DNA of 64,000 nt from Bacteroidales bacterium (GCA_015061165.1 SUXC01000014.1:3584-67583); one strand, 5' to 3'. Positions 3,852-44,421 are shown, numbered from the stretch's first letter. Numbers and translations are program-made. The notes: generated from the letters alone by a model not told the origin.

Positions 3852-4610
3852 CTATAAAAATAGTTCTTGTGGATAGTCAATGTGTGTGAGGAAAAGGCCT
3901 TCGGCAGGGGCAGAATCTCCTGCGGCGCAGCGGTTGTGTTGTGCAATGACCTCGGCAAACTGCTCTTTGGTCATCTTACCACGACCCACCTCAAACAATG
4001 TTCCTACTACGGCACGCACCATATTGCGCAAGAAGCGGTCGGCTGCAATAGTGAACACAGCGTGTCCGTTGCCTAATTCTCGCCATTCTGCAAGCGTGAG
4101 GTCGCAAATAGTAGTTTTCACATCCGTATTCGTGCGGCAGAATGAAGCAAAATCCTGTTTGCCAATCAACCATTGCGCTGCCTCGTTCATGGCAGCAAAG
4201 TTCAGTCCTGGGCGCACGCGCGTGGCTTGTTGGCAGAGGAAAGGATCTTTGTGATCCACGATATGGTACTCGTAGGTGCGGCGCACGGCAGAGAACCGCG
4301 CATGCGCATCATCCGTTACAGGATAGATGTCAAAAATAGCGATGGAATCGGGCAAAATGCCGTTGAGGCGAAAGAGCAAATTTTGGCGATTGGCAATTGG
4401 CGATTGGCAATTGGCGAGATCGAAATGCGCATACATCTCGCGCGCATGGACACCCGCATCGGTGCGACCAGCGAAAGTGAGTGGTATCTCCTCGCGGAAA
4501 ATCATAGCCAACGCCTGCTCCATCGTCTCTTGAACAGTAATGCCATTGGGCTGGCGTTGCGAGCCGTGAAAGGCAGTGCCATCGTATGCAAAGCGAATGA
4601 AATAACGCAT
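3852..4610 (-). CDS. truA: tRNA pseudouridine(38-40) synthase TruA
   Basis: 252 aa. MRYFIRFAYDGTAFHGSQRQ and the catalytic GRTDAGVHA motif are canonical TruA. Confidence 0.93.
   Translation of the reverse strand: MRYFIRFAYDGTAFHGSQRQPNGITVQETMEQALAMIFREEIPLTFAGRTDAGVHAREMYAHFDLANCQSPIANRQNLLFRLNGILPDSIAIFDIYPVTDDAHARFSAVRRTYEYHIVDHKDPFLCQQATRVRPGLNFAAMNEAAQWLIGKQDFASFCRTNTDVKTTICDLTLAEWRELGNGHAVFTIAADRFLRNMVRAVVGTLFEVGRGKMTKEQFAEVIAQHNRCAAGDSAPAEGLFLTHIDYPQELFL
4384..4418. repeat. 5 x 7 nt TGGCGAT/TGGCAAT module inside truA
   Basis: tggcgat tggcaat tggcgat tggcaat tggcgag. On the minus strand it encodes ANCQSPIANRQ. Confidence 0.9.
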
Positions 4611-4618
4611 AATTCTTG

Positions 4619-4648
4619 CCTTTAACCTTTAACCTTTAACCTTTAACC
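4619..4648. repeat. CCTTTAA x 4 array at the flippase stop / truA start junction
   Basis: cctttaacctttaacctttaacctttaacc. It contains the flippase stop codon (4629-4631). Confidence 0.9.
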
Positions 4649-6167
4649 AAACATTTCGCACTTGCTGGTTGATTTCGGGGGAGAGGTCTTTGAACCATGC
4701 TACGGCACAACCTCCTCCGATGAGGACTATGGTGCGAATAATACTACTTAACCATATATTATTGATTGGCAAGTAGGCTTGCCACAGGAAATTCAGATTG
4801 AGTATCACCAAAATCAGAAGAAGAATCTTCAGATGTTGGCGCGTGAAAGTGGGTGCACGGAGCGTGTAACGCACTGTCAATGTGATTAATAGGAAATATA
4901 TTGCGTAAGCAATGAGATTGCTAACGGCTGCTCCATTCATACCAAAATAAGGAATGAGAAGATTATTGAGCACTATGGATAGAGCCGTTAGAATAAAGGA
5001 AAACAATAATGAGAAGGCATAGAAGCGGGAATAGTTGAGTGCCGAAGAACTAAACGAGCAAACGGCAATAATGAGTTGGCTGGTGCCTAACATCAATACC
5101 ACTTGGCGGGCAGTAGCGTATGTCTCGCCATTAGGCAGAATATGGAAGATGAGATCAATATTGAGCCAAATGAGGCAAAGAATCATGCCGCCTATGAGCA
5201 AGAGCGTACTGCTGACCTGCTGCATAAGGTGAGCCGTTTCACGCTGATTATTTTCCTTGATAGCCGTTGCTAATTGTGGTGAGGCAATGGCTGTCATGGA
5301 GCGATAGGGTATGCTGACCATTACGGCTATATAGGTAGCAATGGCAAAGATACCTGTATAATTTAGTCCCATCTCAGCGGTAATAAAGAAGGAAGAGAGC
5401 GTTGGTGCAAGCACGCTGGCTACTGCGGAAACGAGCAAAAACCCAGTGTAGAGCAGGTACTGGCGCACCAATGGGCGGTTCTGGCGCAAGAACTCCCAAT
5501 CGGGGCGGAGCGACACTTCACCTAACGAGAATAGATAGACCATATTGCAGCACATAGCCACAGCATATACGCCACACAAGGCTACCACGAAACCATCTAT
5601 ATCCACCACGCGAAACGCATAGAGCAAATAAGCAAGGAGCAATCCGATACGCGTGATGAGTTCGCGCACAGCACGAGGCACTACGATATGCATACGCACA
5701 TTAGCATTGGTCTCAAAAACAGTCTGATAGAGCATAAAGAACGCCATCGGGAGTACCATATAGTAGTACTCTACAAAGAGAGGGGACTTCTCCCCAAACC
5801 AATGACTAAGTGGTTCGTGGCATGCACAATAAATAGCGGTGAATAGGGCGAAACCTACGAGTGGAACAATCAGTGTCCAGAAGAAAAAACCGTGGTCGGA
5901 AGAATTTTGAATTAAGAATTTTGAATTTTGAATTACTTTATTTGAGGAGCTCTTAAAGTGCGGATAGAAGCGAATAATAGAAGATGACGTGCCGAGTTGG
6001 GCAAGTCCGATGAAGAGAGTGGCAGCATCTACCAATACGCGCGCCAGACCAATCTCCTCGGCTGTGAGGAAACGGGTGAGTACGAAGAACGTAGTAACAA
6101 AGCCCACCGCCACCCCAATATAGGTGACGATGGTGCCTTGAAAACTCTGTTTGGCGATGATGCCCAT
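4629..6167 (-). CDS. Wzx/MATE-like oligosaccharide flippase (polysaccharide biosynthesis protein)
   Basis: Polytopic membrane ORF. I place the start at the MGIIAKQSFQGTIVTYIGV methionine (rc ATG 6165-6167), because the track extension to 6239 reads through a repeat array. The stop codon lies inside the CCTTTAA array. Confidence 0.78.
   Translation of the reverse strand: MGIIAKQSFQGTIVTYIGVAVGFVTTFFVLTRFLTAEEIGLARVLVDAATLFIGLAQLGTSSSIIRFYPHFKSSSNKVIQNSKFLIQNSSDHGFFFWTLIVPLVGFALFTAIYCACHEPLSHWFGEKSPLFVEYYYMVLPMAFFMLYQTVFETNANVRMHIVVPRAVRELITRIGLLLAYLLYAFRVVDIDGFVVALCGVYAVAMCCNMVYLFSLGEVSLRPDWEFLRQNRPLVRQYLLYTGFLLVSAVASVLAPTLSSFFITAEMGLNYTGIFAIATYIAVMVSIPYRSMTAIASPQLATAIKENNQRETAHLMQQVSSTLLLIGGMILCLIWLNIDLIFHILPNGETYATARQVVLMLGTSQLIIAVCSFSSSALNYSRFYAFSLLFSFILTALSIVLNNLLIPYFGMNGAAVSNLIAYAIYFLLITLTVRYTLRAPTFTRQHLKILLLILVILNLNFLWQAYLPINNIWLSSIIRTIVLIGGGCAVAWFKDLSPEINQQVRNVWLKVKG
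5902..5936. repeat. 5 x 7 nt GAATTWW module inside the flippase CDS
   Basis: gaatttt gaattaa gaatttt gaatttt gaattac. It encodes KVIQNSKFLIQNS. Confidence 0.9.
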
Positions 6168-8836: not shown

Positions 8837-10351
8837 TTATTTTTTCTTAATGAGTGCCTTTCCATCCAAACGGTAGAAAATGACACAATATATAATAAGG
8901 AGTATAGTGCCTATACCCATTTTAATCCATTCGTTGATTGGCAATAAGTGTGCCAAAGTGTAATATCCTGCCAAAAGTGTCAGAACAAGCAGGGTGTATA
9001 TGCCAATTCGGCGCAAATCGTATGGTATCTCGAGATGTTTGCGTCCCACGAAATAAGAGAGCAACATAATCACGAGGTAGCATACGGTACTGCTGGCTGC
9101 GGAAGCCATATAACCTATGCGAGGTACGAAGATGGCTTGCAGCGCAAAGGTAATGACTACTCCGATAATGGAGAAGTAGGCACCCCATTGCGTTTTGTCG
9201 GTGAGTTTGTACCAAAAACTGAGGTTGAAATATACGCCTTGGAAGATATACGTCCAGAGGACAACAGGTACGATTTTTAGTCCTTCCCAATAGGCGGGGG
9301 CGATAATAAATTTTAGTAGATCAAGGTAGAATATCATCCCCAACAAAATCATGTAGGAGAAGATAATATAGTATTTCATTGCATCAGCGTAGGCAGCCAC
9401 GGATTCGCGGTCTTTGTGCTTGGCAAAGACGAATGGTTCGTAGGCATAGCGGAAAGCCTGCGTGAACATCATCATCACCATTGCCACCTTGAAACATGCG
9501 CCGTAGATGCCCAATTGCGCTTGTGCATCGGCTCCATCGTAGAAGAAGGGGAATAAGATACGGTCCAGCGTTTGGTTCATGATACCGCACACACCCAATA
9601 CCAAGAGGGGCAACGAGTAGCGAAGCATCTGCTTCAGTAATTTGCCAGAAAATAGTTGTCGGGAGTCGGGAGTCGAGAGTCCGTAATCTGCGCGAAAGCC
9701 TTCAAGAATCGCTGGCAACAAACACAATGTCTGTATACCCGTAGCCATGATGTTTGCCACAAAGACATACCCTACTCCATAGTTGGGATTATACCACGAA
9801 GAGATGATTGCCCAATCCTGAATCTTCGGACAGAGTACGAGGAAGAAGAGATTGAGAATAATATTGAGGAATACGAATAGGAGTTTGAGTGCAGCAAACT
9901 GCAATGGGCGTTTCTTGTAGCGCAAGTACGCAAACGGTATGCTGGCAAAAGCATCCATTGCCACTACTATACCGAGCAGTGCAATGAACTCGCTGTGTGT
10001 AGGATAACCCAATGCGTTGGCTATAGGCATTCGCCATACCACACACGCTACCGCGAAAAGCAGTGATGTGGTAAAAAGCGCAATGAGCGAAGTACTATAA
10101 ACCGTCTTGGGATTTTCTTCGGCTTTGTTGGCAAAGCGGAAGAAGCCTGTTTCCATACCATAGGTGAGGATTACCAAAAGCAGTGCCGTCCACGCATAGA
10201 GGTTGGTAACTATACCATAGTCGGACTGCTGTTGCAGCACGTATGTGTATAGCGGAACGAGCAGCCAGTTGAGAAACTTGCCGACAATGGATGACACGCC
10301 ATAAATGGCGGTCTCCTTAGCGAGTATTTTCATTTGCAGGTTGCTGCTCAT
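8837..10351 (-). CDS. Wzx/MurJ-like oligosaccharide flippase family protein
   Basis: 504-aa polytopic membrane ORF. ATGA start/stop overlap with rsmI upstream. Confidence 0.8.
   Translation of the reverse strand: MSSNLQMKILAKETAIYGVSSIVGKFLNWLLVPLYTYVLQQQSDYGIVTNLYAWTALLLVILTYGMETGFFRFANKAEENPKTVYSTSLIALFTTSLLFAVACVVWRMPIANALGYPTHSEFIALLGIVVAMDAFASIPFAYLRYKKRPLQFAALKLLFVFLNIILNLFFLVLCPKIQDWAIISSWYNPNYGVGYVFVANIMATGIQTLCLLPAILEGFRADYGLSTPDSRQLFSGKLLKQMLRYSLPLLVLGVCGIMNQTLDRILFPFFYDGADAQAQLGIYGACFKVAMVMMMFTQAFRYAYEPFVFAKHKDRESVAAYADAMKYYIIFSYMILLGMIFYLDLLKFIIAPAYWEGLKIVPVVLWTYIFQGVYFNLSFWYKLTDKTQWGAYFSIIGVVITFALQAIFVPRIGYMASAASSTVCYLVIMLLSYFVGRKHLEIPYDLRRIGIYTLLVLTLLAGYYTLAHLLPINEWIKMGIGTILLIIYCVIFYRLDGKALIKKK
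9661..9681. repeat. 3 x 7 nt GGGAGTC module inside the second flippase CDS
   Basis: gggagtc gggagtc gagagtc. It encodes LSTPDSR. Confidence 0.8.
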
Positions 10352-11016: not shown

Positions 11017-11038
11017 AATTTTGAATTATGAATTATGA
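11017..11038. repeat. GAATTWW units at the rsmI start / upstream gene stop junction
   Basis: aatttt gaattat gaattat ga. It contains the stop codon at 11033-11035. Confidence 0.75.
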
Positions 11039-13829: not shown

Positions 13830-14354
13830 CTACAATGTTGAGTAAATTTTCAACTTTTCTTCTGTAGTAAAGGCAGCAAAACGAGCTTTCCAATATGCCG
13901 ACTTTTCGTGGTCGAATTGTCCGCGGTCGATTTCCGACTCTTTGCCTACTTGGTGCAAGATTGGGTTATTACCTTCGCCCATATGTTCTGCCCAAGTAAG
14001 TTCCGCAAAAGGAGAGTCTTGCTGCTGTCCTATATGATGCAATTCATATGGATCTCCATTAGGATCGCGCGGCGGAAAGCCTTCTCCAATAAGGTCAGCA
14101 TTGTTGTACTCTGCCCAACGGTCGTAGTCTTTGAGGCGTTTTTGCGTGCTGGTTTTGAGCCAAGTATTTCTGCGAATGGAGAAATCTGCCCAATTGATAT
14201 CCGTTCGGCATAATGCCCAACGTTCTCCGATTAGGCATGCTTGTAGTTTAGCGCGCATATAAATCTCCGCTTCTTCCATAGTAGCAATGTAACGGATAAC
14301 ATCTTCAGGCCAGTTAGTTCGCTGACTAATGAGTTGTTGCTCTTGAGATGTCAT
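13830..14354 (-). CDS. Stand-alone HNH/EndoVII-fold nuclease of the LHH type
   Basis: 174 aa. The segment DPYELHHIGQQQDSPFAELTWAEHMGEGNNPILH fits the LHH toxin-nuclease signature (LHH ... H ... LH). No signal peptide and no large N-terminal delivery domain. Confidence 0.7.
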   Translation of the reverse strand: MTSQEQQLISQRTNWPEDVIRYIATMEEAEIYMRAKLQACLIGERWALCRTDINWADFSIRRNTWLKTSTQKRLKDYDRWAEYNNADLIGEGFPPRDPNGDPYELHHIGQQQDSPFAELTWAEHMGEGNNPILHQVGKESEIDRGQFDHEKSAYWKARFAAFTTEEKLKIYSTL

Positions 14355-14485
14355 TTCTCTCCTAAATTGTTAGTAGGAATATTCAAACGGCTGTTGCAGT
14401 TTGGGCATTTTGGTAGCACCTCTTTAATGAAGCCACCTACGGTAAATACATGTTTGCATCGTAAGCAACGACGAAGTTGTAGCAT
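14351..14485 (-). CDS. 44-aa zinc-ribbon peptide, translationally coupled to the LHH nuclease gene
   Basis: Hand-translated as MLQLRRCLRCKHVFTVGGFIKEVLPKCPNCNSRLNIPTNNLGEK. It has two CxxC pairs 16 residues apart. Its TGA overlaps the nuclease ATG (ATGA). It is too short for the ORF track. Confidence 0.5.
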   Translation of the reverse strand: MLQLRRCLRCKHVFTVGGFIKEVLPKCPNCNSRLNIPTNNLGEK

Positions 14486-14513
14486 AAAAGTTCGCGTTAA
14501 GAAATTAGTCTTT

Positions 14514-14618
14514 TTATTTTTTTAATAAATCACCAATAATCTTAACTGCAGTTTTTACTAAGTTAATCACATCATTACGTTCAACATCCGAAACTTTTCC
14601 ATTAGTTTTTGGTTTCAT
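14514..14618 (-). CDS. Possible 34-aa ORF
   Basis: Hand-translated as MKPKTNGKVSDVERNDVINLVKTAVKIIGDLLKK. It lies 28 nt upstream of the zinc-ribbon ORF on the same strand. The only support is position and an amphipathic-helix-like sequence. Confidence 0.25.
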   Translation of the reverse strand: MKPKTNGKVSDVERNDVINLVKTAVKIIGDLLKK

Positions 14619-14732
14619 AATTTTTTTCCTTTCTTGTCTTATTTTCCGCCTACTCTTTGTCGGATTTTCGGCACACTCCGTTGGTTAATTGTTTGAATTA
14701 TTGTTTGTTATCTTGATTTCGTATATACATAC

Positions 14733-14755
14733 AAAAAGCGTGAACTTTCGTTCGC
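14733..14755 (-). terminator. Intrinsic terminator or attenuator between the rod-like element and the small ORFs
   Basis: Minus strand: gcgaac-gaaa-gttc(a)cgc followed by TTTTT. Confidence 0.5.
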
Positions 14756-14761
14756 TTCAAT

Positions 14762-14900
14762 TTGATTGTTTGAGGTTCTGGACTACCTTAGTAATTCAAA
14801 TTTACGCACGGAAAACTCACGCTGGTAACGCGAGCGTGCATAAACCGTACTTGAATTACTAAATGGTTGTTTTGAAAGTGTCCAGTTTTCAAACAATCAA
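14762..14900 (-). ncRNA. 139-nt rod-like nested-helix element (candidate structured leader or ncRNA; could also be a DNA-level imperfect palindrome)
   Basis: Five nested helices read by eye on the minus strand: ttgattgtttga/tcaaacaatcaa (12 bp), ctggac/gtccag, acc..ttagtaattcaa/ttgaattactaaggt (15 bp with a 2-nt bulge), gtacgg/ccgtgc (one G-U, which favours the minus-strand RNA), and cacgct/agcgtg. Confidence 0.4.
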
Positions 14901-15006
14901 GTCTGGGCTTATAACGCTATATTAAATATGTCGGGCAACGGTATCGTTGCAGTTTAGTTATGAACTATGAGTGATGAATGATAAGTAATTTTAGGGAGTT
15001 AGTTAT

Positions 15007-15325
15007 TTAGTTAGTATCTTTTTGCTTAATACCTATTGCGTTGGTAAGTTCTACCCATCTGGTTGAAGACATAGTAAAAGCATTTAATCCTGCCTCTACT
15101 CTAATCCCCTCGAATTCGAGGGGGTTAAAATTAGGGTTATACAACGTCTCCATATACCCAAGAACTCAATCGTATACGATTTCTCATCCAATTTGCGACA
15201 ACACCATTAGGATCTATGGCGTTTTTCATTCTCGCAATATCCGTCATGCAGATATAATCAACGTTACCATGTTTGATAGTTTTAACGGCAACTTCTTTTA
15301 CGATAATTTCACTTTTCTTTGCCAT
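15007..15325 (-). pseudogene. KilA-N domain gene remnant (two frameshifts, C-terminally truncated)
   Basis: Three reading frames together give MAKKSEIIVKEVAVKTIKHGNVDYICMTDIARMKNAIDPNGVVANWMRNR / TIEFLGIW / ETLYNPNFNPLEFEGIRVEAGLNAFTMSSTRWVELTNAIGIKQKDTN. This resembles the N-terminal half of Bacteroidales KilA-N proteins. The usual C-terminal half is absent. Confidence 0.6.
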
Positions 15326-15351
15326 AATCCATTGTTTTCGAAAATCGGCTG

Positions 15352-15359
15352 CAAAGGTA
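15352..15359 (-). promoter_or_regulatory. -7 box TACCTTTG upstream of the KilA-N remnant / LHH locus
   Basis: rc of CAAAGGTA, 27 nt from the remnant ATG. This is the only consensus box I found upstream of the LHH genes. Confidence 0.6.
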
Positions 15360-15445
15360 GTGAAATATTTTGAATTGTGCAAATAAAAATGCCATTCCAC
15401 TTGAAAATAATATGCTCTTTTTTCGCTATTTTCTATTTGAAGTGG

Positions 15446-16534
15446 TTATTCCACCACTAAGCACCAGCCGTGTGTGTCTTCGGTGCGACCGTACTGGATG
15501 TCCTGCAAAGCGTGGTAGAGTTTTGTCAATACAGGACCTGGCTTGTCGCCAAAAGAATATGTAATATCATTATCTGGGTCATAGACCTTTGTCAATGGCG
15601 AAATAACACAAGCCGTACCACAAGCTGCTGCCTCCTGCATGTCTGCCAATTCCTCTACACGGATATGGCGACGAGTAACCTTCATACCCATCTCACGCGC
15701 CAAAGTCATCAACGAATCGTTGGTAATGCTGGGCAAAATAGCAGTGCTGCGAGGGGTGAGGTATTCGAAAGTTAGATCGCTTCGCTGTAGATTGGCTACG
15801 CCTGTAGATCGCTTGGCTGTAGTGGGGGCAGAGCCCTGTAGATGGCTACGCTGTTTGATTGCGATAAAATTGGAAGCGGTACACTCATCAATATACTTGT
15901 GCGTTTTGGCATCAGTGAACATGCACTCATAGCCCATAGCGTGCGCCGCTTCGCTGGCGCGGAAAGATGCCGCGTAGTTACCACCCACTTTCCAACAGCC
16001 CGTGCCTTGTGGCGCAGCACGATCGATGGTGCGGTTCACGATAGCAGGCATGCCTTTGAAACCATTGGGGAAATACGGACCAATAGGCGTAGGGACAACC
16101 ACAAACTCGCAATCTTTGCCTGGCCCTACACTGATATCAGGCGTAGTAGCAACGAGCAACGGACGGAAATAGAGCGTAGCACCAGTTTCGTAAGGAGGAA
16201 GGAAAGCGATGTTCTTCTCCAGTGCCAACAATATCGCTTCGCAAAAGAGTTCTACAGGCACGGGGGTCATCAGCAGTCCTTCGGCAGAATGGTACATGCG
16301 TTTGGCGTTCTCCTCCATGCGGAAGATACGCACCTTATCGTCCACACCACGAAAGGCCTTCAGTCCCTCAAAACACTCTTGGCCATAGTGCAGGCCTGTG
16401 GCAGCGGCATGGATAGGAATCATCTTGTCGCGCGTGGCATAGGGGCGTTCCCATACGCCATTCTTGCATGCCGCACGGACAATATAGTCCGTTTCGGTAT
16501 AGTGAAATGTCAGTTTACTCCAGTCTATATTCAT
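15446..16534 (-). CDS. ilvE: Branched-chain amino acid aminotransferase
   Basis: 362 aa. Class IV aminotransferase blocks (GLHYGQECFEGLKAFR, ILPSITNDS). Contains a repeat-encoded extra segment of about 25 aa. Confidence 0.9.
   Translation of the reverse strand: MNIDWSKLTFHYTETDYIVRAACKNGVWERPYATRDKMIPIHAAATGLHYGQECFEGLKAFRGVDDKVRIFRMEENAKRMYHSAEGLLMTPVPVELFCEAILLALEKNIAFLPPYETGATLYFRPLLVATTPDISVGPGKDCEFVVVPTPIGPYFPNGFKGMPAIVNRTIDRAAPQGTGCWKVGGNYAASFRASEAAHAMGYECMFTDAKTHKYIDECTASNFIAIKQRSHLQGSAPTTAKRSTGVANLQRSDLTFEYLTPRSTAILPSITNDSLMTLAREMGMKVTRRHIRVEELADMQEAAACGTACVISPLTKVYDPDNDITYSFGDKPGPVLTKLYHALQDIQYGRTEDTHGWCLVVE
15772..15853. repeat. CTGTAG-containing imperfect repeats inside ilvE
   Basis: ctgtag at 15785, 15802, 15817 and 15836. 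tagatcgctt occurs twice, 32 nt apart, and ggctacgc occurs twice. It encodes QRSHLQGSAPTTAKRSTGVANLQRSDL. Confidence 0.8.
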
Positions 16535-17100
16535 ATCTTCATAATGGTCTCAGGACCATATTCAAATAACAAGTCCAATATACTCTGTCCATTGCCAAAG
16601 CAAGGTTCTAAGTCCAATCCCTGCCAGTCGCTGGTTCGATTCTCGCCTAATAGCCTCTTTGCCTCTTCGCCTTTCGCATCGTTCGCTATCAAACGAATGA
16701 TTACCTCATGGATTTTCTCGTTAAAATCGACCAAAAAGCGCGTTTCTTGTTCGTAGAAAGGACGGAAGAAATCTGCGTAGTAATCGAAATAAGGTGTGCG
16801 TTTGTAGGCACTCATAAGGGCAATCCAATGCTGGTGTTGCCAACGCTTCTGGAAACTAATCTCCACATCGCGCGTGAACTGTTTGCTATCCACACGCTTC
16901 ACGGGCACGGTGAGCGTGAGGCGATTGGCAATTGGCGATTGGCAATTGGATTGAGAGTCGTGCGGCACAGTAATCGTACACCTATTGCGGTAGGTTTGCT
17001 TCGGAAAACTCTCCATCACCTCAATCTGGACTACCGATGGATTCGCCAAAAACTGGCGGTACCATTCTACAGGCCCCATATATGTTGTTGGCAATATCAT
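16531..17100 (-). CDS. WbqC family protein
   Basis: I place the start at MILPTTYMGPVEWYRQF (rc ATG 17098-17100). KQTYRNRCTI is the WbqC-family block. The track extension to 17211 reads through a heptamer module. Confidence 0.8.
   Translation of the reverse strand: MILPTTYMGPVEWYRQFLANPSVVQIEVMESFPKQTYRNRCTITVPHDSQSNCQSPIANRLTLTVPVKRVDSKQFTRDVEISFQKRWQHQHWIALMSAYKRTPYFDYYADFFRPFYEQETRFLVDFNEKIHEVIIRLIANDAKGEEAKRLLGENRTSDWQGLDLEPCFGNGQSILDLLFEYGPETIMKI
16919..16953. repeat. 5 x 7 nt TGGCGAT/TGGCAAT module inside the WbqC-family CDS
   Basis: aggcgat tggcaat tggcgat tggcaat tggattg. Bases 16920-16949 are identical to 4385-4414. Confidence 0.9.
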
Positions 17101-17105
17101 ATTTT

Positions 17106-17140
17106 TGGAATCGGGAATCGGGAGTCGAGAATTAGGATTT
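17106..17140. repeat. 5 x 7 nt GGGAATC-type module filling the wbqC-start / lepB-stop gap
   Basis: tggaatc gggaatc gggagtc gagaatt aggattt. The gap runs from 17101 to 17140. Confidence 0.85.
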
Positions 17141-18535
17141 TTATTCAAAATTGCTGAGTCCGATACGGTTCCAACGAATATGGCCTTTGCCCCATGGGTT
17201 GTCTTTCTCAATACTGAGCCATACGAACATTGGGCGGCCTACGATATGGTCTTCTGGCACAAAGCCCCAGTAACGGCTATCGGCTGACTTATGACGGTTG
17301 TCGCCCATCATCCAATAATAATCCATCTCAAAGACGTATGGTTCGCCCACTTTCATTGGTTTGAACTCATACGCATCGGCAATACGCTTATACAGGTGGA
17401 AGTTCTCCTCAGTAATCATCACCGTATCGCCCTTGGCAGGGATATAGATTGGTCCGTAGTTATCGCGTGTCCACGAGTTGTGTCCCAAAGGATACACCTC
17501 GCCACCTTGGTCTTCGGGCTCAATCTCTATGCTGAGGACATGGCTGTTCTTCTCGAGTTCGGCTTTCATCTCGGCAGTCAGTGGCAGGCGATACAATCCG
17601 TTGCCATTGCTCTCGCGGTCTTCTTTGGAAATACCCAATTTGCTCAAGTAACTATTACCCAACACATGACCATCGGTGCGAACGATATAGTTGTATTGCA
17701 AGTATGGGTGTACGGGTTCTTTCTGACCGTCGATATAAATCACATTATCAATGATTTGCAACGTGTCGCCTGGTGTGCCTACGCAACGTTTGACATAGTT
17801 CTCTCGGCGATCCACAGGGCGAACAACAATCTCGCCAAAGACATCCTTGCGGTTCTCTACCGTGCGCTTGCCATAGTAGTGGCAGAGAGTATAGTAGTCG
17901 GGATTTTGCATCTTCGTGCAGACCGTATCGCCCGTGGGGAAGTTAAACACCACAATATCGCCTTTCTCTACTTTGTCCCAACCACGGAGGCGTTTATACT
18001 CCCATTGTGGGTTGTCGAAATAACTCTTTCCGCCCCAAGGGAAAGTGTGTTGCACGAGAGGCATAGAGAGAGGTGTATTGGGCACACGTGCTCCGTAACT
18101 CATCTTATTCACACAAAGGAAATCGCCCACACGCAGGGTTTTCTCCAACGAAGAAGTGGGGATTTGATAATTCTGGAATATATAAACATTGATGAAATAC
18201 ACCGCTACCAACGCAAAAACGATGGCATCTATCCACGAACATATGGTATAGAGCGTGCTATTAGCATGCGGATTCTTTTCCTTTTGATTCCCGATCCCCG
18301 ATTCGCGATTCCTATTATCCACATTATCTGGTTTGTACTTCTTCCACCAGTTCCAAGGGATATACTTGGTAGTGAACATATCAGCAATAATTGGCAACAG
18401 TATGAGCCAACCGAGGCTTGCCCAATCGCCCCATGCTACCCAAACGACAAACGCGATGTAAATCGCGCACCATATGCCACAAGAAACCCACCCTTTGGTG
18501 GTTACTTCCTTGATTCTATCTTGAAAACTTTTCAT
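17141..18535 (-). CDS. lepB: Signal peptidase I
   Basis: Conserved SPase I box GDNRHKSADSRYWGFV and Ser box region IPTSSLEKTL. I place the start at the MKSFQDRIKE ATG (rc 18533-18535); the track start at 18568 is a TTG inside the promoter box. Confidence 0.9.
   Translation of the reverse strand: MKSFQDRIKEVTTKGWVSCGIWCAIYIAFVVWVAWGDWASLGWLILLPIIADMFTTKYIPWNWWKKYKPDNVDNRNRESGIGNQKEKNPHANSTLYTICSWIDAIVFALVAVYFINVYIFQNYQIPTSSLEKTLRVGDFLCVNKMSYGARVPNTPLSMPLVQHTFPWGGKSYFDNPQWEYKRLRGWDKVEKGDIVVFNFPTGDTVCTKMQNPDYYTLCHYYGKRTVENRKDVFGEIVVRPVDRRENYVKRCVGTPGDTLQIIDNVIYIDGQKEPVHPYLQYNYIVRTDGHVLGNSYLSKLGISKEDRESNGNGLYRLPLTAEMKAELEKNSHVLSIEIEPEDQGGEVYPLGHNSWTRDNYGPIYIPAKGDTVMITEENFHLYKRIADAYEFKPMKVGEPYVFEMDYYWMMGDNRHKSADSRYWGFVPEDHIVGRPMFVWLSIEKDNPWGKGHIRWNRIGLSNFE
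18286..18313. repeat. 4 x 7 nt GATTCCC-type module inside lepB
   Basis: gattccc gatcccc gattcgc gattcct. It encodes NRESGIGNQ. Confidence 0.85.
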
Positions 18536-18654: not shown

Positions 18655-18698
18655 AATCACTAACGAATCACTAACGAATAACTAACGAATCACTAACG
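18655..18698. repeat. 4 x 11-mer aatcactaacg
   Basis: Read directly in the lepB/TPM divergent spacer. Confidence 0.9.
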
Positions 18699-18717
18699 AT
18701 TGACTGCTGAAAAGCGG

Positions 18718-18806
18718 GGGAATCGGGAGTCGGGAATCGGGAATCAAGCTGGGGAATCGGGAATCAGGAATCGAGAGTCAAGTGGGGGGATCGGGAGTCG
18801 GGAGTC
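18718..18806. repeat. Three blocks of GGGARTC heptamers (4 + 4 + 3 units)
   Basis: Blocks at 18718-18745, 18752-18779 and 18786-18806. Confidence 0.9.
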
Positions 18807-18896
18807 AAGGGTATTTTGATGCGTTATTTAGACCAAGAGCCTGCCATTTTGTCAGCATAGAGATGTGTGGCACGATATTTGTCGTGGTTTTGGTGT

Positions 18897-19823
18897 ATGA
18901 AACGTGTAAAACTATTTATTCTATTATTCATGCTTGGCTTCGTGGCACAAGCAGCGGTGTTTACACCTACTACTTTGCCCAATCCAAAGGCACAAGATCG
19001 CAGTAATTATGTCTGCAATCCCGATGAAATCGTGGCAACCAACGAGGTAATGTTCCTCAACCGTTTGGCGCGACAGTTGGAAGACTCCACCCAAGTGGAA
19101 CTATGCGTGGTAGCAGTGAATAGTATCGGTGAAATGGAGGCATTTGACTTCTGCTACGAGGTGTTTCAGCGTTGGGGCATTGGCAAAAAAGGGAAGAACA
19201 CGGGTGTGCTGTTGTTCCTTGCCGTAGAATCGCGCGATATACGTATCATGACGGGCGGTGGTATTGAAGGAATATTGACGGATGCCGTTTGTAATGAAAT
19301 CATACAAAAGACGATGATTTCACCGCTCCGTAATGCTGATTATTCAGATGCAATGGCGTTAGGTGCGTTGCGCATATACGAGATATGTACAGATGGTGCT
19401 GCGCCCGAAGAATTACGCCAAATGACTTCGGCTACCAATCGCTATCATTATGCCGATGAATCCGAAGAAAATGGTTGGTTGGAGTTGTTTTATTTTGTGG
19501 GTATTCCCTGCTTAATCTTTACCCTAATTATCGTTTTGCTACTGATGCCTAAGAAATGCCCAAAATGTGGCAAGCGCAGTCTAAGGAAAACGAATGAGCA
19601 GATTATCAACCGCGCCACAACACGCAAAGAAGGATTGGGTGTGCGCACATACTGCTGCAAAGATTGTGGACACCAAGAGCAGAAGACCTATATCATCCCA
19701 AAAGAAGTGCCCACAGTCATTATCACGGGCGGTGGTTCTCGTGGTGGCTTTGGCGGAGGCAGTTTTGGCGGTGGATTCGGCGGAGGTAGCACGTTCGGCG
19801 GAGGCGCAGGAGGGAAGTTTTAA
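18897..19823 (+). CDS. TPM (YgcG-like) domain protein with zinc-ribbon insert and Gly-rich tail
   Basis: Signal peptide MKRVKLFILLFMLGFVAQA. TPM block QVELCVVAVNSIGEMEAFDF...NTGVLLFLAVESRDIRI. CPKCG...CKDCGH. C-terminal GGFGGGSFGGGFGGG. Confidence 0.8.
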   Translation: MKRVKLFILLFMLGFVAQAAVFTPTTLPNPKAQDRSNYVCNPDEIVATNEVMFLNRLARQLEDSTQVELCVVAVNSIGEMEAFDFCYEVFQRWGIGKKGKNTGVLLFLAVESRDIRIMTGGGIEGILTDAVCNEIIQKTMISPLRNADYSDAMALGALRIYEICTDGAAPEELRQMTSATNRYHYADESEENGWLELFYFVGIPCLIFTLIIVLLLMPKKCPKCGKRSLRKTNEQIINRATTRKEGLGVRTYCCKDCGHQEQKTYIIPKEVPTVIITGGGSRGGFGGGSFGGGFGGGSTFGGGAGGKF

Positions 19824-19858
19824 GAATTTTGAATTTTGAATTTTGAATTAAGAATTAA
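19824..19858. repeat. 5 x 7 nt GAATTWW module immediately after the TPM gene stop
   Basis: gaatttt x3, gaattaa x2. Confidence 0.9.
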
Positions 19859-19877
19859 AAAATTATATATTAGGATT

Positions 19878-23800: not shown

Positions 23801-24806
23801 TTTCGCTTTCGAAGCAGGCGGCAGTCTTGACCAATTAGAGATAGTTTATCACACCTCGGAGCGCGAATACCAACAGGGCGAGCGCGTGGTATGGCTGTGC
23901 CATGCTCTCACCGCTAACTCCGACCCATTGGACTGGTGGCCAGAGATGGTGGGCGACGGTTGCTGCATTGATCCGAACAAAGACTATGTAGTGTGTGTCA
24001 ATATCTTCGGCTCTGCCTACGGCACCACAGGACCGAGAGATTTCGGGAATCGCGACTCGCGAATCCCGAATCAAAAAGGATATCTCGATTTTCCCAAGTT
24101 CACGGTACGCGATACAGCCCGCCTCTTCACTTTGGTGCGCGAGCATCTGGGCATAGAGCAAGTAGATTTGTTGGTGGGCAGTTCGATAGGCGGATTCCAT
24201 GCGTTGGAATGGGCAATTATGGAAGGCGAACGCATTCGCCATGCCGCGTTTATTGCCACTGCGCCTCGCGTGTCGCCATGGCTGAGCGCATGGATGGAGG
24301 TGCAACGTATGGCACTGGAGGCCGACCCCACGTTCCACGCCTGCGAGTCGCTGGATGGCGGATGCAAAGGGTTGGAGGCTGCACGCGCTATTTCGCTCAT
24401 CTCCTACCGCAGTTTTGATGGCTACAACCTCACGCAATACGAGACCGATGATGACTGCCTCTTTGCCTGTCGTGCAGCCAGTTACGAGCGCTATCAAGGC
24501 GAGAAACTGGTCAAACGCGGGTTTGATGCCTACTCCTACTACTACCTACTCCACTGCGTAGATAGCCAAAACGTAGGTCGCCATCGCGGTGGCATCAAAG
24601 CAGCATTGGCACAAATCAAAGCCCAAACGGTGGTGATAGCCATCACATCCGATGGACTCTTCCCACCATGCGAGAGTAGCGAGTGGGCAAAACATATCCC
24701 CCACGCCAAGTATTACGAGATAGAATCACGATTCGGACACGACGGATTCCTACTCGAAACCGAGCAAATCACACAAATAATAAATAGTTTAGAGGTTAAA
24801 GGTTAG
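23772..24806 (+). CDS. metX: Homoserine O-acetyltransferase
   Basis: 344 aa alpha/beta hydrolase with nucleophile elbow GSSIGG and C-terminal FGHDGFL. 29-nt overlap with metY. Confidence 0.88.
   Translation: MHLHKLTTHNFAFEAGGSLDQLEIVYHTSEREYQQGERVVWLCHALTANSDPLDWWPEMVGDGCCIDPNKDYVVCVNIFGSAYGTTGPRDFGNRDSRIPNQKGYLDFPKFTVRDTARLFTLVREHLGIEQVDLLVGSSIGGFHALEWAIMEGERIRHAAFIATAPRVSPWLSAWMEVQRMALEADPTFHACESLDGGCKGLEAARAISLISYRSFDGYNLTQYETDDDCLFACRAASYERYQGEKLVKRGFDAYSYYYLLHCVDSQNVGRHRGGIKAALAQIKAQTVVIAITSDGLFPPCESSEWAKHIPHAKYYEIESRFGHDGFLLETEQITQIINSLEVKG
24038..24072. repeat. GGGAATC-type module (4 clear units, possibly 5) inside metX
   Basis: (agatttc) gggaatc gcgactc gcgaatc ccgaatc. It encodes FGNRDSRIPNQ. 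Confidence 0.8.
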
Positions 24807-24819
24807 AGGCTAAAGGCAA
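24785..24819. repeat. RAGGYTA heptamer module spanning the metX stop
   Basis: tagttta gaggtta aaggtta gaggcta aaggcaa. Confidence 0.75.
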
Positions 24820-24846
24820 GAAATATGCGGCTCTGCCGCCCCGCCT

Positions 24847-24888
24847 TTACACCTTACACCCTACACTTTACACCACACACCATACACT
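24847..24888. repeat. 6 x 7 nt TTACACC-type array just upstream of thrA
   Basis: ttacacc ttacacc ctacact ttacacc acacacc atacact. Confidence 0.85.
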
Positions 24889-24894
24889 AATTAT

Positions 24895-27315
24895 ATGAAA
24901 GTCCTCAAATTCGGTGGAACCTCAGTAGGTTCAGTAGATAGTATTCGTCAAATACAGCATATCATCAGTCAGCAGACCGATGACTGTATTGTAGTAGTCA
25001 GTGCATTGGGCGGCATTACCGATCAATTGCTCCGAGCAGCACACTTGGCGCTCGAAAATGGCGAAGAGTACATGGAAGTATATCAACAGATTCGCCAACG
25101 CCATCTGGATATGATTCAGACGCTGATAGAGAATACCACCGTGCGCCAAATGCTCTGCCACGAGATTGAGCGCATATTGGATGAACTGCGTTCTATCCTC
25201 TTTGGCGTGCACCTCATCAAGGACCTCAGTCCTAAATCCGAAGCAGCCATCGTTAGCTATGGCGAGCGCATGAGTAGTCGCATTGTGACGGCTGCACTAC
25301 CTGGTGCCGTGCGTAAGAACTCGTTGGAGTTTATCCGCACCGAACACAAGCATGGACAAATCTTGCTCAATAGCGAGCTGACCGACCAACTCGTGCGCGA
25401 GGCATTCTCACCTATGCCACATTTGGCAGTATGCCCTGGATTTATCTCACGTGATAGCCAAACCGATGAAATAACCAACCTCGGACGTGGCGGAAGCGAC
25501 TATACCGCCTCTATCTTGGCTGCCACCTTGGGCGCAGAGGTATTGGAGATCTGGACGGATGTCAATGGTTTTATGACCGCCGACCCGCGTCTTATCCCAG
25601 AGGCATATACCATTCAGAGCCTCAGTTACGTAGAAGCCACCGAGCTCTGCAACTTTGGCGCTAAAGTGGTATATCCACCTACTATATATCCCGTGTGCGC
25701 GAAGAATATCCCCATCCGTATTCTCAACACTTTCTGCCCTGACAATGCAGGCACGATTATCCAAGCTCAGACGGAGAAGGATGCACACTATGTCTGCGGT
25801 CTCAGTAGTATTCGCGATGTGGCTATGATTACCGTATCGGGTCTTTCGATGGTGGGTGTGATTGGTGTGAACCAACGCATCTTCGGTGCCTTAGCCAATG
25901 CAGGCGTGTCGGTCTTCCTCGTGAGTCAAGCCTCCTCCGAGAACTCCACCACTTTGGGCGTGCAGGAAAAAGACTGCGATGTCGCCGTTGAGGTACTCAC
26001 ACGCGAGTTCGCAGAGGAAATCAAAGTTGGCTCCATGTACCCCATGCTCGTGCAACAGGGATTGGCTGCCGTGAGTATCGTAGGCGAGAAAATGAAGAAC
26101 ATGCCTGGTATCGCAGGCAAACTCTTCGGCACATTGGGTCGCAACGGCATCAGCGTGATTGCTTTTGCGCAGGGTGCAAAGGAGACCAATATCTCGTTTG
26201 TCGTGCCTCAGCAGCAACTCAGCAAGACCATGAATGTGCTGCATGACTCTTTCTTCCTCAGCGAGAATAAGGTACTCAATATCTTCATTTGTGGTGTCGG
26301 CACAGTGGGTGCACAACTTATTGAGCAGATTCAGCAGCAACAATCCACCCTACTCCGCGAGCAGCACATGCAACTCAATGTCGTGGGTATCGCCAATAGC
26401 CGAACGGCTATCTTCAATGCCGAAGGAATCGACCTCACCAACTACCGCGACCAACTTCAAGAGGCTGAACCTCTGCGCCTTGCTACTATTAACGCGCAAC
26501 TTTCCACGCTGCACAATAGCATTTTTGTGGATTGCACAGCCAGTGCCGAAGTGGCAGATACCTATCTGACATTCTTAGAGAACAACATCTCCGTTGTTAC
26601 AGCCAACAAGATTGCAGCATCGGGCGCATATACTCACTACCTGCGCCTGAAACAAACGGCTCTAAAGCATGGTGTGAAGTTCCTCTTCGAAACCAATGTA
26701 GGTGCGGGTCTGCCTATTATTAGCACCATCAACGACCTCCGCAATTCGGGCGACAAGATTTTGCGCATTGAGGCCGTACTCAGTGGTACGCTCAACTTCA
26801 TTTTCAACGAGTTATCCGCCAAAGTGCCTTTCTCTGAGACAATCCGTCGTGCCAAGGAGCAGGGCTATAGCGAACCTGACCCACGCATTGACCTCAGTGG
26901 CAAGGATGTGATTCGCAAACTGGTGATTTTGGCACGCGAAGCGGGCTACCCCGTGGAGCAAGAGGATGTAGAGAAACATTTGTTTGTACCAGAAGACTAT
27001 TTCCAAGGCTCTGTGGATGACTTCTGGAAACGCCTTCCTGAGTTGGATGCCGACTTCGAGGCGCGCCGTCAGGAGTTGGAGAAGAATGGCTTGCGTTGGC
27101 GTTTTGTGGCTTCTCTCAACGAGGGCAAGACACGTGTCAGCCTTGAGACAGTAGATGCTACTCATCCGTTCTATCAATTAGAGGGGTCGAATAATATCGT
27201 GCTTATCACCACCGAACGCTACCACGACTATCCAATGATGATTCGCGGCTATGGTGCGGGTGCTGGTGTAACCGCAGCAGGTGTCTTCGCCAATATCATG
27301 CAAGCGAGCCACTGA
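24895..27315 (+). CDS. thrA: Bifunctional aspartate kinase / homoserine dehydrogenase I
   Basis: 806 aa. N-terminal MKVLKFGGTSVG kinase, ACT region, and a C-terminal homoserine dehydrogenase domain. Confidence 0.93.
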   Translation: MKVLKFGGTSVGSVDSIRQIQHIISQQTDDCIVVVSALGGITDQLLRAAHLALENGEEYMEVYQQIRQRHLDMIQTLIENTTVRQMLCHEIERILDELRSILFGVHLIKDLSPKSEAAIVSYGERMSSRIVTAALPGAVRKNSLEFIRTEHKHGQILLNSELTDQLVREAFSPMPHLAVCPGFISRDSQTDEITNLGRGGSDYTASILAATLGAEVLEIWTDVNGFMTADPRLIPEAYTIQSLSYVEATELCNFGAKVVYPPTIYPVCAKNIPIRILNTFCPDNAGTIIQAQTEKDAHYVCGLSSIRDVAMITVSGLSMVGVIGVNQRIFGALANAGVSVFLVSQASSENSTTLGVQEKDCDVAVEVLTREFAEEIKVGSMYPMLVQQGLAAVSIVGEKMKNMPGIAGKLFGTLGRNGISVIAFAQGAKETNISFVVPQQQLSKTMNVLHDSFFLSENKVLNIFICGVGTVGAQLIEQIQQQQSTLLREQHMQLNVVGIANSRTAIFNAEGIDLTNYRDQLQEAEPLRLATINAQLSTLHNSIFVDCTASAEVADTYLTFLENNISVVTANKIAASGAYTHYLRLKQTALKHGVKFLFETNVGAGLPIISTINDLRNSGDKILRIEAVLSGTLNFIFNELSAKVPFSETIRRAKEQGYSEPDPRIDLSGKDVIRKLVILAREAGYPVEQEDVEKHLFVPEDYFQGSVDDFWKRLPELDADFEARRQELEKNGLRWRFVASLNEGKTRVSLETVDATHPFYQLEGSNNIVLITTERYHDYPMMIRGYGAGAGVTAAGVFANIMQASH

Positions 27316-32359: not shown

Positions 32360-33085
32360 TTATTGTATATCTTGTTGGCAATTTTTATCAAACTCATCTG
32401 CGAACTTTTGATAGTCCATATCCAATTGCAGTTCTTCGTCTTCTTGGATACCCTCATAAATGGGCCCTAACAAATCATCTTTGGCTACCTCTACTACCAT
32501 GTAATGCTTGAATAGTTTTTCGCCATTGAGGACATAAGAGGTCGTTTTGCGACATGCTATACGGTAGCCTGTACTTTGCTCAACTGCGGTCAAAGTCATG
32601 CCCTCCATGCGTTGTTTAGACTCGCGAGTGAGGTTAATGCGCATCGTTTTCTTGTAGTTACTCACAATTGCCTGCACACTGGTATTGATTTGTGAAGCCA
32701 TTTCCTCCAATGCAGCCGAGCGTGCTAATTCTACAGCCATCTGTTGGTCGTAATCTTCGCCTACACCGCGACCGCGAATAATGGTAGCAGTTGTCAAGAG
32801 ATCGCTACATGGCTCGCTGACCTCTACCTCTTGCGCTGCTTGCGCTTCCGCACGGGCTTTGGCGCGGGCTGCTGCCTCGGCGGCTTTCTCTTCTTCTACG
32901 CGCTTGGCATTAGCAATACTATCCATACGGATTTGATGACGGAGGGCAGCCTCTTCAGCATCAAACTGCTGCTGTTGCTCCCATTTGGCTTTCTCGGCTG
33001 CTTTTCTCTCTTTGCGCGTTTGTGCATTCGCAGGAACGGCTACAATAGCCAACGCCATAAGGGCAAGAAAAATGGTCTTTTTCAT
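32360..33085 (-). CDS. LPP20-like secreted protein with Ala/Glu/Lys-rich linker (tentative)
   Basis: 241 aa. Signal peptide MKKTIFLALMALAIVAVPANA. It lies 32 nt upstream of the next gene on the same strand. Confidence 0.6.
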   Translation of the reverse strand: MKKTIFLALMALAIVAVPANAQTRKERKAAEKAKWEQQQQFDAEEAALRHQIRMDSIANAKRVEEEKAAEAAARAKARAEAQAAQEVEVSEPCSDLLTTATIIRGRGVGEDYDQQMAVELARSAALEEMASQINTSVQAIVSNYKKTMRINLTRESKQRMEGMTLTAVEQSTGYRIACRKTTSYVLNGEKLFKHYMVVEVAKDDLLGPIYEGIQEDEELQLDMDYQKFADEFDKNCQQDIQ

Positions 33086-33147
33086 TGTTGTAGTGTTTTA
33101 GTAAGTTTGTATTTATGTTATGATTATTCAAACCGTTATACACATAC

Positions 33148-33180
33148 AAAAAAGCGCGGAACTTGCCTTTTGCCAGTTCC
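33148..33180 (-). terminator. Intrinsic terminator or attenuator inside the lipoprotein-operon leader
   Basis: Minus strand: ggaactggc-aaaa-ggcaagttcc (imperfect), then gcgcTTTTTT. It ends about 65 nt before the ATG at 33085. Confidence 0.5.
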
Positions 33181-33495
33181 ACCTTTTGAGGCTGTCGCAT
33201 TGCCTTAGATATTAGAACCGACAACGCGAAGCCCACGCCGAATATAAAATATACTCTCGTGCTACATAGTTAAGGTACGCGTGTGCGCATACGCATATAC
33301 GCAAACAATGTACCAAAATAGGCACAAGAGGGATAATCTATATCCCGTAGGACATCTATCGTTGCTAAGTCCTGAATATCTATTGAAAGTTGCGACATTC
33401 CAAAAGGTCAGAACAGAGCGCAATAAACGCCTTTTTAATATGTCTGCAAAACCCTCCGCCGATGCGCAGACATCCCTTCGTTGGGTTTCGCGCTG

Positions 33496-33503
33496 CAAAG
33501 GTA
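33496..33503 (-). promoter_or_regulatory. -7 box TACCTTTG with -33 TTTG, 411 nt upstream of the lipoprotein operon
   Basis: On the minus strand, TTTG lies 20 nt upstream of TACCTTTG. No closer consensus box precedes the gene starting at 33085. Confidence 0.55.
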
Positions 33504-33556
33504 ATACATTTTTTTGAATTGAGCAAATAATAATCGTTTTTTAGGGCGATTTTTCT

Positions 33557-33591
33557 GATGTAAAGTGTAGAGTGTAAGGTGTAAAGGCAAA
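33557..33591. repeat. 5 x 7 nt RGTGTAA module (reverse complement of the TTACACC family)
   Basis: gatgtaa agtgtag agtgtaa ggtgtaa aggcaaa. Confidence 0.8.
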
Positions 33592-42607: not shown

Positions 42608-42625
42608 AATTATAGAATTTGGGTG

Positions 42626-42673: not shown

Positions 42674-42691
42674 CGCGTTAATTGTATATTT

Positions 42692-44419: not shown

Positions 44420-44421
44420 GG

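Follow-up and report, generated by a model that had tools for sequence, protein, structure and literature searches.

The trp-type attenuators, the T-box leaders and the riboswitch platforms are built to a common plan. Each is a 5' leader co-oriented with its gene, in which a structured domain is followed by a hairpin and a U-tract, with no promoter behind. The same plan is found in an element on the minus strand of a stretch of DNA of 64,000 nucleotides (nt) from a Bacteroidales bacterium (GCA_015061165.1, SUXC01000014.1:3584-67583), analysed at its full length and called the window below. On balance, we believe that positions 14721-14950 of the minus strand are one copy of a conserved, cis-acting structured 5' leader RNA of about 230 nt, which belongs to the Bacteroidales of herbivore guts and controls read-through.

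The element also resembles the classical attenuators, with their alternative segments 1:2 and 2:3, in that one strand has two mutually exclusive conserved partners. In other respects it differs from these systems. It lacks a leader peptide, tRNA-specifier features and a known ligand, and it forms a rod rather than a multi-stem junction. It is also paralogous, with several copies per genome placed before functionally unrelated genes, most of which encode surface proteins. Finally, the competition comes from a decoy of the basal helix within the element itself, and we infer its link to the terminator.

Another group of cis-acting RNAs found at the start of a transcription unit, with a terminator to bypass, comprises the put RNA of HK022, the EAR element of Bacillus, and the 5' untranslated regions of the LoaP and Bacteroides UpxY systems. 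Units controlled by processive antitermination or NusG paralogues encode surface or exopolysaccharide functions, and their RNA elements are single-copy and serve one type of operon. No similarity of sequence or structure between these RNAs and the element was detected, and no NusG-like gene was seen near it.

No description of the present RNA family was found in the published literature. Rfam 15 likewise gave no match to the rod, either at gathering thresholds in the whole window or, in a search of 14300-15500 at E <= 10, on 14721-14950. The family is uncatalogued so far; leaders of its kind, which act in cis and combine competing helices with a terminator-like module, are known. The new particulars are the rod shape, the several paralogues per genome before surface-protein genes, a hypervariable helix, and a basal helix whose sequence recurs at three places in the element and co-varies in at least 27 classes.

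Fold, covariation and the internal decoy

The minus strand of 14733-14950 folds at -73 kcal/mol. Dinucleotide shuffles average -39.7 (standard deviation 3.7), so that z = -8.96, and none of 200 shuffles was as low. As a single sequence, the plus strand of the element folds nearly as well (-71.5 kcal/mol, z = -6.0), and the numbers of G·U pairs for the two strands are 5 and 4. The strand can therefore not be decided from the window alone, and it is the comparison of the family that decides it.

Three parts make up the minus-strand fold. The first is a hairpin of 6 base pairs (bp) at 14935-14950. The second is the rod, at 14762-14900, which has 52 bp in the minimum free energy (MFE) structure of the single sequence. 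In the consensus of the family it has 44 bp, divided among five helices (P1 12, P2 6, P3 12, P4 6 and P5 8). The third is a small hairpin followed by UUUUU, at 14733-14758. The unit of conservation reaches beyond the palindrome by about 35 nt on each side and extends to 14721, giving 230 nt in all (14721-14950).

The 5' hairpin, called H0 (GCAACG-AUAC-CGUUGC), has an energy of -6.9 kcal/mol and z = -6.6. A hairpin is present at this position in most homologues with a class-specific sequence (GGCGC..GCGCC, GGCAC..GUGCC or GGUAA..UUACC), and thus shows some covariation. It is followed by the conserved 5' flank CCGACAUAUUUAAUAUAGCGUUAUAAGCCCAGAC (14901-14934), in which AGCGU..AUAAGCC is invariant or nearly so in 149 sequences. 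This flank holds ACAUAU, a possible strand of an outer helix, and AGCGU at 14914-14918, the 5' strand of a candidate long-range helix, P0.

The rod then begins with the 5' strand of P1, UUGAUUGUUUGA (14889-14900), which is paired with 14762-14773 and falls into at least 27 sequence classes across the family. Next comes the 5' strand of P2, CUGGAC (14880-14885), paired with 14778-14783. Between P2 and P3 there is an asymmetric internal bulge of 14 nt, UUUCAAAACAACCA (14864-14877), which is a second copy of the P1 3' strand. The 5' strand of P3, UUAGUAAUUCAA (14851-14862), is paired with 14788-14799 and contains a hypervariable core of 7-8 bp. Together, P3 and P4 form a nearly continuous helix of about 18 bp. 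The apical domain (14806-14850) is conserved, and consists of P4 (GUACGG/CCGUGC), P5 (AU-CACGCU/AGCGUG-GU), the internal loops UUU and UUUUC, and a variable apical loop. The 3' strands of P3, P2 and P1 return in that order through 14799-14762.

Behind the rod lies the terminator-like module GAAGCGAAC-GAAA-GUUCACGC, a hairpin with a GNRA loop followed by UUUUU (14733-14758). The last part is a semi-conserved tail, GUAUGUAUAUAC (14721-14732), which is kept in many homologues. In the MFE of the full 230 nt of the window copy, the tail pairs with the 5' flank as ACAUAU/GUAUGU. A general long outer helix between the 45-nt flanks was considered and rejected, since it gave no family-wide signal (-10.7 versus -10.4) and strong complementarity was confined to one class of 5' flank. 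No tandem repeats occur inside the element.

Evidence for the structure is provided by covariation in an alignment, A6, of 149 distinct sequences, with shuffles and slid structures as controls. In the named structure 95.3% of the cells are paired, compared with 87.6% after shuffling. Double changes occur in 567 cells compared with 158 after shuffling, and 21 pairs carry them. The covariation score is 0.226, compared with 0.083 in the shuffles; none of 500 shuffles attained it, and the slid controls scored 0.014-0.051.

The helices differ in how they vary. P1 has compensatory changes at 7 of its 12 pairs. In P3 they are found at 9 of 12 (for instance AU 65, UA 50, GC 18 and CG 12 at one pair), with 97.5% of the cells paired. 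P2 co-varies as well, with GC in 83 sequences and CG in 34 at one pair, and CG in 135 and UA in 10 at another. P4 and P5 are nearly invariant in sequence. Their one-sided changes all give a G·U pair in the minus-strand orientation, where the other strand would have a C·A mismatch. One pair is U·G in 102 sequences and C-G in 45, another is U·G in 149 of 149, a third changes from C-G to U·G in 25, and changes from A-U to G·U are also seen. Because these changes yield G·U on one strand only, they indicate that the structure is selected on the minus strand of the window, most simply as RNA.

Much of this fold had been anticipated in an earlier note on the same DNA. Its rod of about 45 bp in five nested helices and its separate 6-bp hairpin agree with what was found, and the covariation analysis that it proposed shows the pairs to be maintained beyond both kinds of control. 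Its argument that a G-U pair favours the minus strand is borne out by the family, through the wobbles of P4 and P5, and not by the single sequence, where the count of 5 against 4 is undecided. It had overlooked the conserved flank as far as 14721.

One strand of the rod has a second partner. In sequence, the 14-nt bulge is similar to the P1 3' strand, and across the family it changes in step with P1, so that it can serve as an alternative partner of the P1 5' strand (P1a); this alternative pairing is called P1alt. Examples from different classes are UUGAUUUUCUGA with UUUUAGAAAAAUCA, UUGGUUCCCUUG with ACAAGAACCA, and UUGAUACUUUGA with UACAAAGAUCA. The alignment program MAFFT loses register across bulges, and the decoy pairing was judged by energy-based swap and permutation tests. 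The duplex of bulge and P1a has a mean energy of -6.0 kcal/mol with its own partner and -3.8 kcal/mol with the bulges of other classes. At the level of classes, the own bulge beats the non-self mean in 26 of 27 P1a classes, and none of 20000 label permutations reaches the observed mean.

The alternative hairpin has the same architecture in four classes, with energies of -4.8 to -8.1 kcal/mol and a loop of 9 nt that corresponds to the P2 5' strand. It is present in the MFE of nascent transcripts of 120-150 nt, and the rod supplants it once the 3' strands are transcribed. The covariation of bulge and P1a implies that two mutually exclusive helices are both under selection, as is characteristic of RNA switches or programmed folding pathways. 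The same test applied to P1a and the downstream leader and start region, as a negative control, gave no pairing signal. The idea that P1a might bind the downstream leader or start codon, prompted by UCAAACAAU repeats in the leader of the window and by UUCAAACAAUUAUG in four loci, was therefore rejected (own -7.17 versus swapped -7.20 kcal/mol, median rank 0.5).

The strand at the 3' end of the element also has two possible partners. ACGCU at 14737-14741 is shared between the local hairpin and the 3' strand of the candidate P0 (AGCGU/ACGCU). In the local hairpin, the outer pairs AAGCG/CGCUU are more than 90% paired without variation, and the inner pairs vary. In P0, 99.7% of the cells pair, and the sequence is invariant except for 10 changes from U-A to U·G. 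The hairpin and UUUUU are kept in all 149 aligned homologues.

Distribution and genomic context of the family

More than 170 homologues were recovered by pattern scans from Bacteroidales of the rumen and gut, mostly Paludibacteraceae. The genome scan covered one genome per species and fixed only the two P1 strands (TGATTGTTTGA N98-125 TCAAACAATCA). It gave 68 loci, 54 of which are true homologues in 47 species-representative genomes; the remainder are chance matches in heptad repeats. Although the P1 sequence was fixed by the pattern, two copies each were found in 7 genomes, so that at least 7 genomes are of this kind. The hosts of the 54 comprise 28 Paludibacteraceae, 23 unclassified Bacteroidales, one Candidatus Aphodosoma, one Bacteroidaceae and one contig assigned to "Bacilli", which is probably mis-binned. 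Nearly all of the source genomes were assembled from metagenomes of ruminant or other herbivore guts. A metagenome scan anchored in the apical domain gave at least 120 loci and added at least 96 distinct full-length sequences.

A profile search found exactly one copy in each locus of 8-14 kilobases (kb), and the flanking genes differ from locus to locus. Several matches of the genome scan sit at contig ends, as expected of a repeat that breaks assemblies. In one locus (L080), the rod is 100% identical to that of the window, including its P3 allele, in an unrelated context where only the 285-nt element is shared (94.7%). The element was not found by blastn against phages and plasmids or by three pattern scans of viral contigs.

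The element is oriented with the gene that follows it. The dominant open reading frame (ORF) within 900 nt downstream was compared in 126 loci: it shares the strand of the element in 117, lies on the opposite strand in 1 and is ambiguous in 8. For the upstream ORF, the corresponding numbers are 74 on the same strand and 13 on the opposite one.

The positions of promoters fit a leader as well. The Bacteroidota -7 box TAnnTTTG occurs within 200 nt upstream in 47 of 150 loci, with a peak at 40-60 nt ahead of the conserved UAGCGU. On the downstream side, 19 of 141 loci have the box within 150 nt, which is about the rate expected by chance. Many copies, that of the window included, lie 100-200 nt behind a co-oriented gene and have no box of their own, and in two loci (L024 and L040) the element is directly behind a tRNA gene. 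In the window, neither a sigma-70-type site nor TAnnTTTG was found between the U-tract and the small ORFs behind it. Outside the rod, the closest -7 box on the minus strand is TACCTTTG (15352-15359), ahead of a frameshifted KilA-N gene. An internal box, TAAATTTG (14797-14804), was considered as a promoter and rejected: it is unconserved, and about one third of the copies have TTTATTTG there.

The genes behind the element are diverse, and most encode surface proteins. N-termini resembling signal peptides were found, by a crude test, in 102 of 139 downstream proteins (about 73%). The commonest Pfam families are the leucine-rich repeats (LRRs) of BspA type, LRR_5 (24 of 137 proteins), together with LRR_8, Listeria-Bacteroides repeats (Flg_new) and Big_2. 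Peptidases, OmpA, a T9SS sorting domain, SusD, DUF805, GIY-YIG and DUF6140 are among the families met singly. The genes before the element are of accessory types, such as KilA-N (5), YhcG/DUF1016 (4), DUF2442 (3), Bro-N (2), ORF6N and the toxins of toxin-antitoxin pairs. A KilA-N, Bro-N or ORF6N gene is found upstream of 8 of 51 homologues. No recombinase, transposase or integrase recurs among the neighbouring genes scanned.

In the window, the element precedes three genes on the minus strand. The first is an ORF of 34 amino acids (aa) at 14514-14618, followed by a 44-aa ORF with a weak zinc-ribbon match (14351-14485) and an LHH nuclease (13830-14354; Pfam LHH, E = 1.2e-18). Between the U-tract and the 34-aa ORF lies a DUF805b RNA motif (RF02914, clan CL00115), at 14647-14681 on the minus strand. 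The match is full-length (1-35) and scores 39.5 bits, with a gathering score of 35.6. The motif is a neighbour of the rod family and not part of it. Like the element, DUF805b is a candidate cis-regulatory motif of Bacteroidales and occurs in the same leaders. It differs in being a separate hairpin motif of 35 nt after the U-tract, and most copies of the rod lack it. A DUF805b-like motif is found 3' of the element in 25 of 152 loci, only one of which (L085) precedes a DUF805 gene, and the motif may often be the distal part of a longer leader.

Contigs with an identical LHH protein or an identical 34-aa ORF carry the whole block, consisting of rod, U-tract, DUF805b, the two micro-ORFs and LHH. 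The same DUF805b match is found in L002, L004, L006 and L007. Conservation of the block begins about 60 nt upstream of the 5' hairpin, irrespective of the gene farther upstream. The KilA-N gene is split by a frameshift in the window (15007-15400, minus strand). It is intact, with 135 aa, in L006 (2170-2577) and L007 (2206-2613). L002 (3027-3335) and L003 have an unrelated ORF of 102 aa in its place, and the junction of similarity is inside the RNA element. Here P3 differs on both arms and is still perfectly paired (UAGUAAU/AUUACUA has become AUAUUCU/AGAAUAU), and the same allele is found in other species (L067, L076). Since P3 was swapped on both arms for an allele known from other species, this looks like recombination between paralogous copies with the junction inside the element.

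A search for LHH homologues gave 341 at E <= 0.001. Those at 65-82% identity, in the five other lineages examined, have no rod and no DUF805b, and directly upstream they have DUF6140 or no recognisable gene. The element is thus independent of LHH. In several loci (L008, L009-L011 and L013) a small DUF6140 gene precedes LHH instead of the 34-aa and 44-aa micro-ORFs of the window. One metagenome copy of the RNA element precedes a DUF6140 gene.

Proposed mechanism and alternative explanations

A read-through mechanism can be proposed for the element. Transcription would start at an upstream promoter, which may be the element's own or that of the preceding small gene (in the window, the promoter of the KilA-N remnant at about 15352). 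The transcript would contain a small 5' hairpin, a conserved single-stranded stretch, the five-helix rod, the small GNRA hairpin and the U-tract. Since no promoter follows the element, the downstream genes would depend on read-through; in the window these are the DUF805b-led micro-ORFs and LHH, and in other loci mostly genes for secreted proteins, those with BspA-type LRRs among them.

During transcription, the P1 5' strand would first pair with the decoy in the local hairpin, or else with the distal 3' strand, closing the rod. If the decoy hairpin persisted, the 5' and 3' flanks would be far apart, and the local terminator hairpin would form. If the rod closed, the 5' AGCGU would lie beside the 3' ACGCU, and P0, closing a three-way junction, would compete with the terminator hairpin for the same strand. 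What share of the transcripts reads through would depend on the balance of conformers, and a protein or ligand recognising the invariant internal loops would shift this balance. Termination is the presumed controlled step in this scheme, and the direction of the switch and the existence of an effector are likewise presumed. With regulated genes of so many kinds, a metabolite riboswitch is less likely than a protein partner or a global signal.

The minus-strand selection, the co-orientation, the conserved hairpin and U-tract, and the lack of a promoter behind them make an attenuator or riboswitch-like leader the best reading, as the earlier note had suggested. Its statement that no promoter lies between terminator and ORFs also holds. 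Its stem and TTTTT tract, read there as a terminator, lie where it placed them and are conserved in the 149 homologues.

Several points weigh against a leader that controls read-through. The 3' hairpin alone is bulged and weak (-7.1 kcal/mol, z = -1.4), and a simple terminator scan does not call the minus-strand hairpin and U-tract. A transcript 3' end at the U-tract, with read-through beyond it, is a prediction from the sequence. In partition functions, neither P0 nor the local hairpin prevails in the family as a whole, the two having about equal weight. Covariation gives no preference either, since P0 is invariant and so are the outer pairs of that hairpin. The on/off logic is also uncertain, as the formation of P0 would still leave a helix abutting the U-tract. 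An ordinary metabolite riboswitch would not be expected before genes of such diversity, and the rod has few complex junctions. Finally, single-stranded DNA (ssDNA) tolerates G·T wobbles too, and the strand asymmetry is by itself no proof of RNA. Motifs of ssDNA and of RNA are known to be hard to separate by sequence analysis (Weinberg et al. 2017, PMC5737381).

One alternative is that each copy is a stand-alone small RNA (sRNA) gene. An RNA of about 230-250 nt would be made from its own promoter, end at the U-tract, and act in trans or bind a protein in the manner of 6S RNA. The canonical Bacteroidota box 40-60 nt upstream in a subset of loci would suit such a gene, as would the conserved hairpin and U-tract, the rod with paired ends, and the several copies per genome. 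6S RNA is also a rod of about 200 nt with paired ends and conserved internal loops. The element differs from it in being multi-copy and strictly co-oriented, with locus-specific helices and without a central bubble resembling an open promoter; Rfam gave no 6S RNA match for the rod. Co-orientation with the next gene at 117:1 is a rule foreign to free-standing sRNA genes. In addition, promoters are not enriched between element and gene, many copies lie 100-200 nt behind a co-oriented gene without a box of their own, and a housekeeping RNA would not be expected to have several paralogues with different P1 and P3. We regard an sRNA gene as possible, though unlikely.

The long helix suggests another explanation, in which the element is a module for RNA processing, stability or insulation. 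It would serve, for example, as a target of RNase III, and cleavage would leave a protective 5' structure without any regulated switch. The helix of about 18 bp formed by P3 and P4 is suited to this, and P3 is free to vary while it remains paired. The position of the element between co-oriented genes at many loci, and behind tRNA genes in L024 and L040, also agrees with processing. Such a module would leave unexplained the invariant loops and flanks, the co-varying decoy and the conserved hairpin at the U-tract, and we consider it improbable.

A third alternative acts at the level of DNA. The palindrome would form an ssDNA hairpin and serve as a site of recombination or transposition, similar to attC, to the ends of IS200/IS605 or to a miniature inverted-repeat transposable element (MITE), and would spread or shuffle the adjacent genes. 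The element resembles attC sites and MITEs in being an imperfect palindrome (about 140 nt) with dispersed copies near accessory genes, in which the structure is kept while part of the stem varies. The recombination junction inside the element in L002 and L003, the identical rod in an unrelated context in L080, the many matches at contig ends and the tolerance of ssDNA for G·T wobbles are further points in its favour. The element differs from such sites in that it has no arrays, with its one copy per 8-14 kb locus, and no integrase or transposase recurs among its neighbours. It is also absent from the phage, plasmid and viral collections.

Directly outside the palindrome, all 149 copies keep the bases ..AUAAGCC.. 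on one side and AAU(U)GAAGCG.. on the other, and neither sequence is a direct repeat of the other. The U-tract, the fixed place behind promoters and the 117:1 co-orientation fit transcription. The earlier note had held a MITE to be equally compatible with the sequence. The multiple dispersed copies that this entails were found, but the flanks are conserved family-wide rather than being target duplications, P1 and P3 co-vary, and the G·U pairs favour one strand. A DNA element thus seems quite improbable.

Lastly, a regulator or RNA antitoxin that serves the LHH nuclease operon alone, which the earlier note had in mind and which the position upstream of the micro-ORF and LHH genes without an intervening promoter in the window and its close relatives would allow, is scarcely credible, because LHH homologues at 65-82% identity lack rod and DUF805b, nucleases are rare exceptions among the 137 downstream proteins scanned, more than 95% of the family members precede genes unrelated to LHH nuclease (mostly for surface proteins), and there is neither a tandem-repeat architecture nor an antisense relation to the toxin gene.

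Other features of the window and significance

The window contains a second rod-like leader, at 33135-33495 on the minus strand. It is 361 nt long, folds at -138 kcal/mol (z = -6.8) and has no Rfam match. It is located directly behind a TACCTTTG box (33496-33503) and before an ORF of 241 aa with no Pfam match (32360-33085). Its first nucleotides, GACAUAUUAAAAAGGCG, and its last, ...CGCGCUUUUUUGUAUGUGUAUAAC, are similar to the 5' and 3' modules found in the family described above. Leaders of this type may accordingly be more widespread in these genomes.

Short arrays with a period of 7 nt are found on both strands of the window, of the types GAATTTT/GAATTAA, GGCGATT/GGCAATT, GGGAATC/GGGAGTC and CTTTACA/CCTTAAA. 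They are located at 4371-4428, 4606-4663, 5900-5954, 9655-9690, 11017-11038, 16906-16949, 17100-17135, 18712-18813, 19808-19862, 24039-24074, 24789-24903, 33549-33590, 40563-40620, 44409-44504, 49989-50030, 52429-52503, 53158-53234, 61299-61326 and 63180-63234. Of the arrays compared with the list of ORFs, most lie between ORFs or at their ends, and those at 16906-16949 and 17100-17135 are inside a 226-aa ORF (16531-17211). A heptad-like stretch is also found just upstream of the element, at 14956-14999, and recurs upstream of homologues in other genomes.

Intergenic tandem repeats with a period of 11 nt occur at 18655-18709 and 39535-39611 (AATCACTAACG in 4-5 copies and CTACGGGAACT-like units in 5-7 copies). 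Palindromic Bacteroidota promoter boxes (GCAAAGGTAC ... GTACCTTTGC) are found at 42604-42695 and 61416-61469, and suggest back-to-back divergent promoters.

The Rfam scan proposed in the earlier note gave no family for the rod and did place DUF805b at 14647-14681, a motif that the note had overlooked. Two warnings for annotation follow from these results. A repeat of about 250 bp that breaks assemblies of these genomes is probably a functional RNA and not the remnant of a transposon, and the Rfam DUF805b motif may often be the tail of a much longer leader.

The Bacteroidales of the rumen and hind gut are abundant and poorly cultured, and their RNA regulation is almost unexplored. With its clear covariation, its built-in alternative pairing and its position before genes for secreted proteins such as BspA-type LRR adhesins, the family provides a testable handle on the control of the cell surface. 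A bolder extension of the leader RNA that controls read-through, which we regard as speculative and distinctly unlikely, is an addressable switch system. The locus-specific address would be written three times, in the P1 5' strand, the decoy and the P1 3' strand, and would be complemented by the hypervariable P3. Trans-acting RNAs, other copies or a programmable protein could then recognise each copy individually, so that paralogous surface adhesins are coordinated or mutually excluded. The same sequence might also be a recombination hotspot at which promoters and genes are reshuffled. If this were true, it would represent an RNA-based route to surface variation in gut Bacteroidales.

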